Sequence record: NC_019723.1
DNA length: 47,090 nt
Source: Escherichia phage HK630
Reading direction: 5' to 3' (one strand)
The notes under the pieces were generated by a model. That model was not told the DNA's origin, ran no database searches, and was given only the letters and a program-made list of their open reading frames with translations. The translations under genes were made by a program, and so were the position numbers. Shown piece after piece: positions 12,914 through 14,686 of the stretch. How positions within the stretch are numbered: position 1 is the stretch's first letter; every line of letters starts with the position of its first letter.

Positions 12914-13239
12914 AGACCTTCCGCTGGAAAGTGAAACCCGGTATGGATGTGGCTTCGGTCCCTTCTGTAAGAAAGGTGCGCTTTGGTGATGGCTATTCTC
13001 AGCGAGCGCCTGCCGGGCTGAATGCCAACCTGAAAACGTACAGCGTGACGCTTTCTGTCCCCCGTGAGGAGGCCACGGTACTGGAGTCGTTTCTGGAAGA
13101 GCACGGGGGCTGGAAATCCTTTCTGTGGACGCCGCCTTATGAGTGGCGGCAGATAAAGGTGACCTGCGCAAAATGGTCGTCGCGGGTCAGTATGCTGCGT
13201 GTTGAGTTCAGCGCAGAGTTTGAACAGGTGGTGAACTGA
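12910..13239 (+). CDS. M: tail tip assembly protein M
   Basis: 109-aa ORF overlapping the H stop. Confidence 0.9.
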   Translation: MKTFRWKVKPGMDVASVPSVRKVRFGDGYSQRAPAGLNANLKTYSVTLSVPREEATVLESFLEEHGGWKSFLWTPPYEWRQIKVTCAKWSSRVSMLRVEFSAEFEQVVN

Positions 13240-13937
13240 TGCAGGATATCCGGCAGGAAACACTGAATGAATGCACCCGTGCGGAGCAGTCGGCCAGCGT
13301 GGTGCTCTGGGAAATCGACCTGACAGAGGTCGGTGGAGAACGTTATTTTTTCTGTAATGAGCAGAACGAAAAAGGTGAGCCGGTCACCTGGCAGGGGCGA
13401 CAGTATCAGCCGTATCCCATTCAGGGGAGCGGTTTTGAACTGAATGGCAAAGGCACCAGTACGCGCCCCACGCTGACGGTTTCTAACCTGTACGGTATGG
13501 TCACCGGGATGGCGGAAGATATGCAGAGTCTGGTCGGCGGAACGGTGGTCCGGCGTAAGGTTTACGCCCGTTTTCTGGATGCGGTGAACTTCGTCAACGG
13601 AAACAGTTACGCCGATCCGGAGCAGGAGGTGATCAGCCGCTGGCGCATTGAGCAGTGCAGCGAACTGAGCGCGGTGAGTGCCTCCTTTGTACTGTCCACG
13701 CCGACGGAAACGGATGGCGCTGTTTTTCCGGGACGTATCATGCTGGCCAACACCTGCACCTGGACCTATCGCGGTGACGAGTGCGGTTATAGCGGTCCGG
13801 CTGTCGCGGATGAATATGACCAGCCAACGTCCGATATCACGAAGGATAAATGCAGCAAATGCCTGAGCGGTTGTAAGTTCCGCAATAACGTCGGCAACTT
13901 TGGCGGCTTCCTTTCCATTAACAAACTTTCGCAGTAA
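13239..13937 (+). CDS. L: tail tip protein L
   Basis: 232-aa ORF with a Cys cluster near the C-terminus; lambda gpL. Confidence 0.92.
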   Translation: MQDIRQETLNECTRAEQSASVVLWEIDLTEVGGERYFFCNEQNEKGEPVTWQGRQYQPYPIQGSGFELNGKGTSTRPTLTVSNLYGMVTGMAEDMQSLVGGTVVRRKVYARFLDAVNFVNGNSYADPEQEVISRWRIEQCSELSAVSASFVLSTPTETDGAVFPGRIMLANTCTWTYRGDECGYSGPAVADEYDQPTSDITKDKCSKCLSGCKFRNNVGNFGGFLSINKLSQ

Positions 13938-13942
13938 ATCCC

Positions 13943-14686
13943 ATGACACAGACAGAATCAGCGATTCTGGCGCACGCCCGGCGATGTGCGCCAGCGGAGT
14001 CGTGCGGCTTCGTGGTAAGCACGCCGGAGGGGGAAAGATATTTCCCCTGCGTGAATATCTCCGGTGAGCCGGAGGCGTATTTCCGTATGTCGCCGGAAGA
14101 CTGGCTGCAGGCAGAAATGCAGGGTGAGATTGTGGCGCTGGTCCACAGCCACCCCGGTGGTCTGCCCTGGCTGAGTGAGGCCGACCGGCGGCTGCAGGTG
14201 CAGAGTGATTTGCCGTGGTGGCTGGTCTGCCGGGGGACGATTCATAAGTTCCGCTGTGTGCCGCATCTCACCGGGCGGCGCTTTGAGCACGGTGTGACGG
14301 ACTGTTACACACTGTTCCGGGATGCTTATCATCTGGCGGGGATTGAGATGCCGGACTTTCATCGTGAGGATGACTGGTGGCGTAACGGCCAGAATCTCTA
14401 TCTGGATAATCTGGAGGCGACGGGGCTGTATCAGGTGCCGTTGTCAGCGGCACAGCCGGGCGATGTGCTGCTGTGCTGTTTTGGTTCATCAGTGCCGAAT
14501 CACGCCGCAATTTACTGCGGCGACGGCGAGCTGCTGCACCATATTCCTGAACAACTGAGCAAACGAGAGAGGTACACCGACAAATGGCAGCGACGCACAC
14601 ACTCCCTCTGGCGTCACCGGGCATGGCGCGCATCTGCCTTTACGGGGATTTACAACGATTTGGTCGCCGCATCGACCTTCGTGTGA
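13943..14686 (+). CDS. K: tail tip protein K (JAB/MPN + NlpC/P60 domains); long form from ATG 13943, a shorter form would start at ATG 14087
   Basis: 247-aa ORF starting 6 nt after the L stop; contains JAMM-like HSHPGGLPWLSEAD motif. Confidence 0.8.
   Translation: MTQTESAILAHARRCAPAESCGFVVSTPEGERYFPCVNISGEPEAYFRMSPEDWLQAEMQGEIVALVHSHPGGLPWLSEADRRLQVQSDLPWWLVCRGTIHKFRCVPHLTGRRFEHGVTDCYTLFRDAYHLAGIEMPDFHREDDWWRNGQNLYLDNLEATGLYQVPLSAAQPGDVLLCCFGSSVPNHAAIYCGDGELLHHIPEQLSKRERYTDKWQRRTHSLWRHRAWRASAFTGIYNDLVAASTFV

Follow-up and report, generated by a model that had tools for sequence, protein, structure and literature searches.

A 48-codon 5′ extension of gene K, missing from the lambda reference annotation, encodes part of a predicted JAB domain

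Gene K of the window (the whole stretch analysed, 47,090 nucleotides of Escherichia phage HK630, NC_019723.1) very probably functions as a 247-residue protein translated from ATG 13943, as judged from sequence comparison and structure prediction. Its first 48 residues, which are missing from the conventional annotation, contain the predicted JAMM glutamate and three core elements of a JAB/MPN fold. The long form and its JAB domain are already known from a 2006 description of the domain architecture and from database records; the new value lies in a correction of annotation, not in a new biological entity. Lambda is the reference siphophage, and in its current reference records (NC_001416, UniProt P03729) and in copies of them such as HK629 NC_019711, K is without a quarter of the JAB domain and without the catalytic glutamate. 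A structural-bioinformatics survey of 2020 took gpK as 199 residues with a peptidase domain at 52-182 only, and the JAB domain was missed (PMC7291167). ORF-based screens designed from the reference annotation would have used the truncated gpK. In the assembly of the lambda tail, the role of gpK is one of the few points left to explain. Features of the locus are collected in Table 1.

Table 1. Features of the gene K locus (positions in the window)
Feature	Position	Strand	Details and basis
Gene L stop TAA	13935..13937	+	Followed by 5 nt (ATCCC), then ATG 13943
Full-length gene K	13943..14686	+	ATG start, 247 aa, 28.3 kDa, stop codon included (ORF list)
48-codon N-terminal extension, missing from conventional annotation	13943..14086	+	Pfam, model, alignment, codon bias, dN/dS
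Predicted JAB/MPN (Prok-JAB) metalloprotease domain, residues 3-104	13949..14254	+	Pfam PF14464, Foldseek
Glu19 codon, upstream JAMM glutamate in invariant P-x-E-x-C-G	13997..13999	+	Both alignments
SD-like GGAGG, 11 nt 5′ of ATG 14087, within codons E42-P43-E44-A45	14071..14075	+	Duplex dG -9.5 kcal/mol
G missing from the lambda reference, after J02459 position 14266	14077	+	Direct sequence comparison
Conventional K start ATG, codon Met49 (MSPEDWLQ...)	14087..14089	+	Annotation of NC_019711, J02459, NC_001416
H68-S69-H70-x7-S78-x2-D81, zinc-binding part of JAMM motif	14144..14185	+	Sequence, alignments
NlpC/P60 (C40) papain-like peptidase domain, residues 111-224	14273..14614	+	Pfam PF00877, invariant columns, Foldseek
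Gene I, ubiquitin-like tail assembly protein, proposed gpK substrate	14584..15255	+	ORF list, annotation
Predicted long-form-specific gpK peptides from residues 1-48			(M)TQTESAILAHAR, CAPAESCGFVVSTPEGER, YFPCVNISGEPEAYFR
Predicted N-terminal peptide of a putative 199-aa product begun at ATG 14087			(M)SPEDWLQAEMQGEIVALVHSHPGGLPWLSEADR

Reading frame and domains of gpK

The frame is closed 5′ of ATG 13943 by a stop at 13919-13921, the nearest in frame, and as the interval holds no further start codon, Met1 is the sole start 5′ of the conserved region. Met49 precedes H68 by 19 residues. The initial annotation had described the long frame, with ATG 14087 as its codon 49 and an HxHx7Sx2D motif downstream of it; each coordinate and motif was found as claimed. 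About 17% of mononucleotide shuffles of the extension's 144 nt were free of in-frame stops, so 48 open codons are weak evidence by themselves, and the significance of the extension comes from homology.

Against the Pfam Prok-JAB profile (PF14464), the long form scored 52.3 bits (cut-off 25) over profile positions 3-112 of 114. The 199-residue form scored 23.3 bits, under the cut-off, and matched positions 63-112 only; the 48 extension residues alone matched positions 3-41 (E=5.8e-5). When a K profile was compared with PDB sequences, residues 4-107 were matched to 2kks_A, a JAB domain of solved structure (E=1.8e-6); in this alignment, the profile segment '..ilaharkcapaescgyv..' is paired with EEMLAHARQALPNEACGLL of that chain. 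The AF2 model places a helix at residues 3-15 and strands at 19-27 and 30-40, ahead of the helix and strand that bear H68-S-H70. Its pLDDT was ~86-93 for residues 1-40, with a mean of 72.6 (moderate overall, from a shallow alignment). Foldseek searches of the PDB matched the N-terminal half to PfJAMM1 (5ld9), Rpn11, CSN5 and 2kks (probability 1.00).

Ambroggio et al. (PMC300881) define the JAMM motif as EXnHS/THX7SXXD; its glutamate forms a hydrogen bond to the catalytic water. The complete motif of gpK (E19, H68, S69, H70, S78, D81) was invariant in both alignments, and its predicted catalytic glutamate is E19, which lies within the extension and is absent from the 199-residue form. Because the extension holds helix 1, strands 1-2 and E19, a product from Met49 would be without three fold elements and the catalytic glutamate. 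The earlier proposal that the short product would have a truncated JAB/MPN fold was supported by Pfam, AF2 and the alignments. Two internal GTG codons, 14012 (codon 24) and 14051 (codon 37, the start in KT232076), were rejected as K starts, as both lie 3′ of the invariant E19-x-C-G and of helix 1.

The NlpC/P60 domain is complete in both the 247- and 199-residue forms. It matched PF00877 with 49.2 bits (cut-off 23) over profile positions 1-105 of 105, and its Cys-His-His triad (C121, H187, H199) was invariant across relatives at 31-96% identity. Foldseek matched the C-terminal half to MepS and C. difficile NlpC/P60 hydrolases.

Conservation of the extension

Stop codons in the extension of relatives had been named as a finding that would speak against the long form, and alignment with K homologues of other lambdoid phages had been proposed as a check. 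No stop was found in codons 1-48 of any of 66 distinct close sequences (viral contigs), codon 1 being ATG in all 66, and the extension was aligned down to 27% identity. Variable sites among the 66 were distributed over the three codon positions as 8/2/19 in the extension and 20/17/63 in the rest of the gene. Against a 77%-identical Citrobacter prophage, the extension had a dN/dS of 0.169 and codons 49-247 one of 0.166; dS was saturated against Salmonella and Edwardsiella, and the usable extension value comes from the Citrobacter pair only. By these measures, the extension is conserved coding sequence. Its origin as a chance open frame was dismissed because of homology and dN/dS rather than length.

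Residues I8, L9, H11, A12, A16, P17, E19, S20, C21, G22, V24, V25, Y33, P35, N38, S40 and F47 were invariant in relatives at 67-96% identity, and E19, C21, G22, N38 and F47 were invariant down to 31% identity (six distant homologues). The viral-contig scan yielded relatives at 96-100% identity only, and the distant ones were taken from a tblastn search of the 247 residues against 50,697 phage records, which gave 1750 matches, 1718 of them with a coverage of at least 80%. In an evenly spaced sample of the tblastn matches listed, relatives at 27-48% identity (T1-like, Klebsiella, Pseudomonas, Burkholderia, Acinetobacter and Rhizobium phages) aligned from residues 2-10. The six distant K homologues are annotated at 239-260 residues, and the five that have an annotated gene directly upstream start 0-20 nt past its end. 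Residue 49 is Ile or Leu in all six, and codon 49 is ATA or CTG in two of the 66 close relatives. The earlier suggestion that the long form is the functional protein was supported by every test based on relatives (stops, alignments, annotations, Met49 and Glu19).

The lambda reference sequence

Over 2.6 kb (13000-15600), the window differs from J02459 by one base and is otherwise identical. The window has GGAGGCGTATTTCC at the point where J02459 has GGAGGC-TATTTCC, and its additional G lies 10 nt before ATG 14087. Because this G is absent, the 48 upstream codons are out of frame with K in J02459/NC_001416, and the reference frame, opening MTQTESAILAHARRCAPAESCGF..., is out of register with K. 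Annotators took the first ATG past the error as the start of 'K, 199 aa', and HK629 received a copy of that annotation. HK629 (JQ182735/NC_019711) is 100% identical to the window over 13200-15400, at the same coordinates, as are many lambda derivatives. Its K is annotated at 14087..14686 and noted as 'similar to NP_040598' of lambda, which indicates that the conventional start there was inherited from lambda. On the base comparison, the 199-residue K of the 1982 lambda reference is to be read as a historical artefact of one omitted G. A programmed frameshift joining the two frames of the reference was rejected, the real sequence being one continuous frame.

Among the matches listed, gap-free identity to the window over 13200-15400, and with it the G, is shared by 13 other phage records, including lambda imm21, imm434, DE3, LC730321 (48,503 bp), PV340536 and resequenced lambda stocks; lambda imm21 alone was compared directly by sequence, the others by gap-free identity. 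A G-containing 26-mer had at least 120 matches in IMG/VR. Vendor information for commercial lambda cI857 ind1 Sam7 DNA presumably also gives one inserted base at J02459 position 14266. A literature search for an error of the lambda reference at 14266 returned no relevant paper, and the position is not discussed in the MutaMouse lambda gt10 paper.

Four records are without the G (J02459, NC_001416, OR474059 and OR974322), and these would be the evidence for a real strain variant (lambda cI857 S7) in which the short form alone is enough for growth. That reading is hardly credible. NC_001416 was derived from J02459, OR474059 is flagged UNVERIFIED, OR974322 has the coordinates of the reference, and the G-less 25-mer had no match in 2.9 million IMG/VR viral contigs. 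Of these, OR474059 describes an engineered strain of lambda, S3243, and OR974322 a so-called 'isolate' obtained from cloacal swabs of chickens; both are probably derived from the reference, by reference-guided assembly or in-silico construction, rather than independent sequence.

One further record of the region is of separate interest. MW057783.1, 'Campylobacter phage CJLB-4' (48,361 bp), is 100% identical to lambda/HK629 over the 2.2-kb tail region (13200-15400). Its genes are named as in lambda, and it seems to be lambda DNA (perhaps a control or contaminant) rather than a Campylobacter phage.

Initiation signals and alternative readings of the start

ATG 13943 has no Shine-Dalgarno sequence (anti-SD duplex dG +0.7), which suggests coupling to gene L: K would probably be initiated there by ribosomes that have just finished L, whose stop codon is 5 nt ahead of the ATG. 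Coupled initiation would yield low expression, as expected for a non-structural assembly enzyme. Neighbouring genes of the same operon show similar coupling, H and M overlapping by 4 nt and M and L by 1 nt (ORF list). The K genes of Salmonella and Citrobacter relatives begin 11 nt past L with little or no SD (dG -0.2, -3.1). An HNH endonuclease gene lies between L and K in the T1-like phage AHP42 (399-887 of its locus) and a small zinc-ribbon ORF in an Edwardsiella prophage (769-1098 of its locus), so tight L-K coupling is not universal.

The GGAGG ahead of ATG 14087 led to the annotation of a ribosome-binding site there in lambda imm21, and it probably also accounts for thousands of automated 199-residue calls. 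The conventional reading takes K as a 199-residue NlpC/P60 protein from 14087, the upstream frame being untranslated or a decayed remnant. Besides this good SD, it has the reference annotation and UniProt TIPK_LAMBD on its side, both giving 199 residues, and some prophage versions of K carry the NlpC/P60 domain only (Iyer et al., PMC1779556). It is nevertheless considered extremely improbable. The reference start stems from a one-base error; purifying selection acts equally on the extension and on the remainder of K; within the extension lie the invariant catalytic Glu and three core fold elements; a truncated domain would have no use for the conserved H-S-H...S..D motif; and an untranslated gap of 149 nt past L would be atypical for an operon with the H/M and M/L overlaps.

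Somewhat less remote, though still unlikely, is the production of two proteins in lambda/HK629, 247 residues from 13943 and, by internal initiation at ATG 14087, 199 residues with a dead, short JAB domain. The strength of the GGAGG (dG -9.5), the lack of an SD at 13943, and the retention of both GGAGG and ATG 14087 in 64 of the 66 close relatives would fit such a pair. However, the GGAGG sits in the conserved codons E42-P43, so coding constraint can account for it, and it may be a mere consequence of coding for these residues. Its spacing of 11 nt exceeds the optimum. No SD precedes the codon-49 equivalent in the Salmonella, Citrobacter and Edwardsiella relatives (dG +0.4 to +0.9), one of which has Ile at that position; the Ile or Leu of the six distant relatives and the ATA or CTG of two close ones argue in the same direction. 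A nested pair with divided functions is given slightly less weight again: lambda/HK629 would make a low level of the full enzyme through L coupling, together with a 199-residue form without JAMM activity and with a separate (e.g. scaffolding or regulatory) role at the tail tip. If true, the nested K pair would be a lineage-specific case of internal initiation, like other nested phage gene pairs. The single 247-residue product from ATG 13943 is the preferred reading.

Gene I and the proposed role of gpK

The gene order of the tail module is L - K - I - J, and it was the same in the relatives examined. The last 103 nt of K are shared, in a different frame, with the start of gene I, and the same overlap was seen in the Salmonella, Citrobacter and Edwardsiella prophages. 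The K family was described as JAB plus NlpC/P60, adjoining a ubiquitin-like I, with cleavage of I predicted at the glycine that ends its ubiquitin-like domain (Iyer, Burroughs & Aravind 2006, PMC1779556). Distant gpI homologues carry a K/R-x-G-G-(L/V)-F-(Q/N) motif past the beta-grasp/ubiquitin-like domain. The lambda version is AKSGGVFQ (AGAKSGGVFQ), at gpI residues ~96-105 (window ~14870-14900), and may be the site at which the JAB domain of gpK cuts gpI. Following the proposal of 2006, the JAB domain would probably process the ubiquitin-like N-terminal domain of gpI at the conserved K-x-G-G during tail-tip assembly. By cryo-EM, only gpI residues 135-223 were resolved in the virion tail-tip lumen, which, together with the conserved K-x-G-G motif, is consistent with the predicted cleavage.

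K is required for tail assembly, and the location of gpK in the assembly has been described as unknown (PMC12617516). Mass spectrometry of virions did not reveal gpK (PMC10721106). The literature searched yielded no assay of gpK for zinc binding or (iso)peptidase activity. Any test of the proposal that gpK processes gpI must use the 247-residue protein.

The start of gene I also differs among public records. It is placed either at ATG 14584 (223 residues, SD dG -9.3) or at GTG 14683 (190 residues), the latter in PV340536, OM475432 and KT232076, where GTGA overlaps the K stop. The 190-residue gpI drops ARICLYGDLQRFGRRIDLRV, a beta-hairpin of the ubiquitin-like domain. Burkholderia, Acinetobacter, Klebsiella and T1-like homologues keep this hairpin, so the 190-residue gpI looks truncated. 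A third candidate start is Met14 (ATG 14623), without an SD. In Salmonella phage Oslo, the I homologue (146 residues, 1611-2051 of its locus) is annotated from past the conserved hairpin, with FKFAGSLRRFYRQIHLNV open upstream, and is probably another truncated start call.

Comparison with known families and records

The closest match is the lambda TAPK family (PHROG 30), which is the same gene: it lies between L and I/J, combines JAB and NlpC/P60, and is a non-virion assembly factor. The long form scored 547 bits against PHROG 30 and the short form 441. The exact 247-residue protein is present unchanged in lambda records PV340536 and OM475432, annotated at 247 residues. In NCBI it also occurs, on no fewer than 1000 contigs of E. 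coli, as 'MULTISPECIES C40 family peptidase' with the source name 'metal-dependent protease of the PAD1/JAB1 superfamily'. From the lambda K reference there is no biological difference, only one of annotation (199 residues in J02459, NC_001416, UniProt P03729/TIPK_LAMBD and HK629 NC_019711). Lambda K, in the form of the 199-residue entry AAA96551, was among the proteins listed with a JAMM motif in 2003/2004 (PMC300881). The lambda yeast two-hybrid map contains nothing on the K start (PMC3224144).

In its C-terminal half, gpK resembles NlpC/P60 peptidases (MepS/Spr, phage cell-wall peptidases TIGR02219) in the Cys-His-His triad and papain-like fold. It falls short of the phage cell-wall family itself, scoring 23.9 bits against the TIGR02219 cut-off of 81.9, and since gpK was not detected in virions, it is doubtful that it digests the cell wall at infection.

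In its N-terminal half, gpK resembles the JAMM/MPN+ isopeptidases (Rpn11, CSN5, AMSH, the PfJAMM1/HvJAMM1 desampylase and Mec+/CysO), with which it shares E...HSH-x7-S-xx-D and the predicted MPN fold; residues 3-103 also gave a weak match to the NCBIfam desampylase model. These enzymes act on ubiquitin-like proteins, and the gene next to K encodes such a protein, with a C-terminal G-G motif. Unlike them, gpK is fused to an NlpC/P60 domain and presumably serves virion assembly rather than signalling or sulphur transfer, and its predicted cut is of a peptide bond within gpI rather than of an isopeptide bond.
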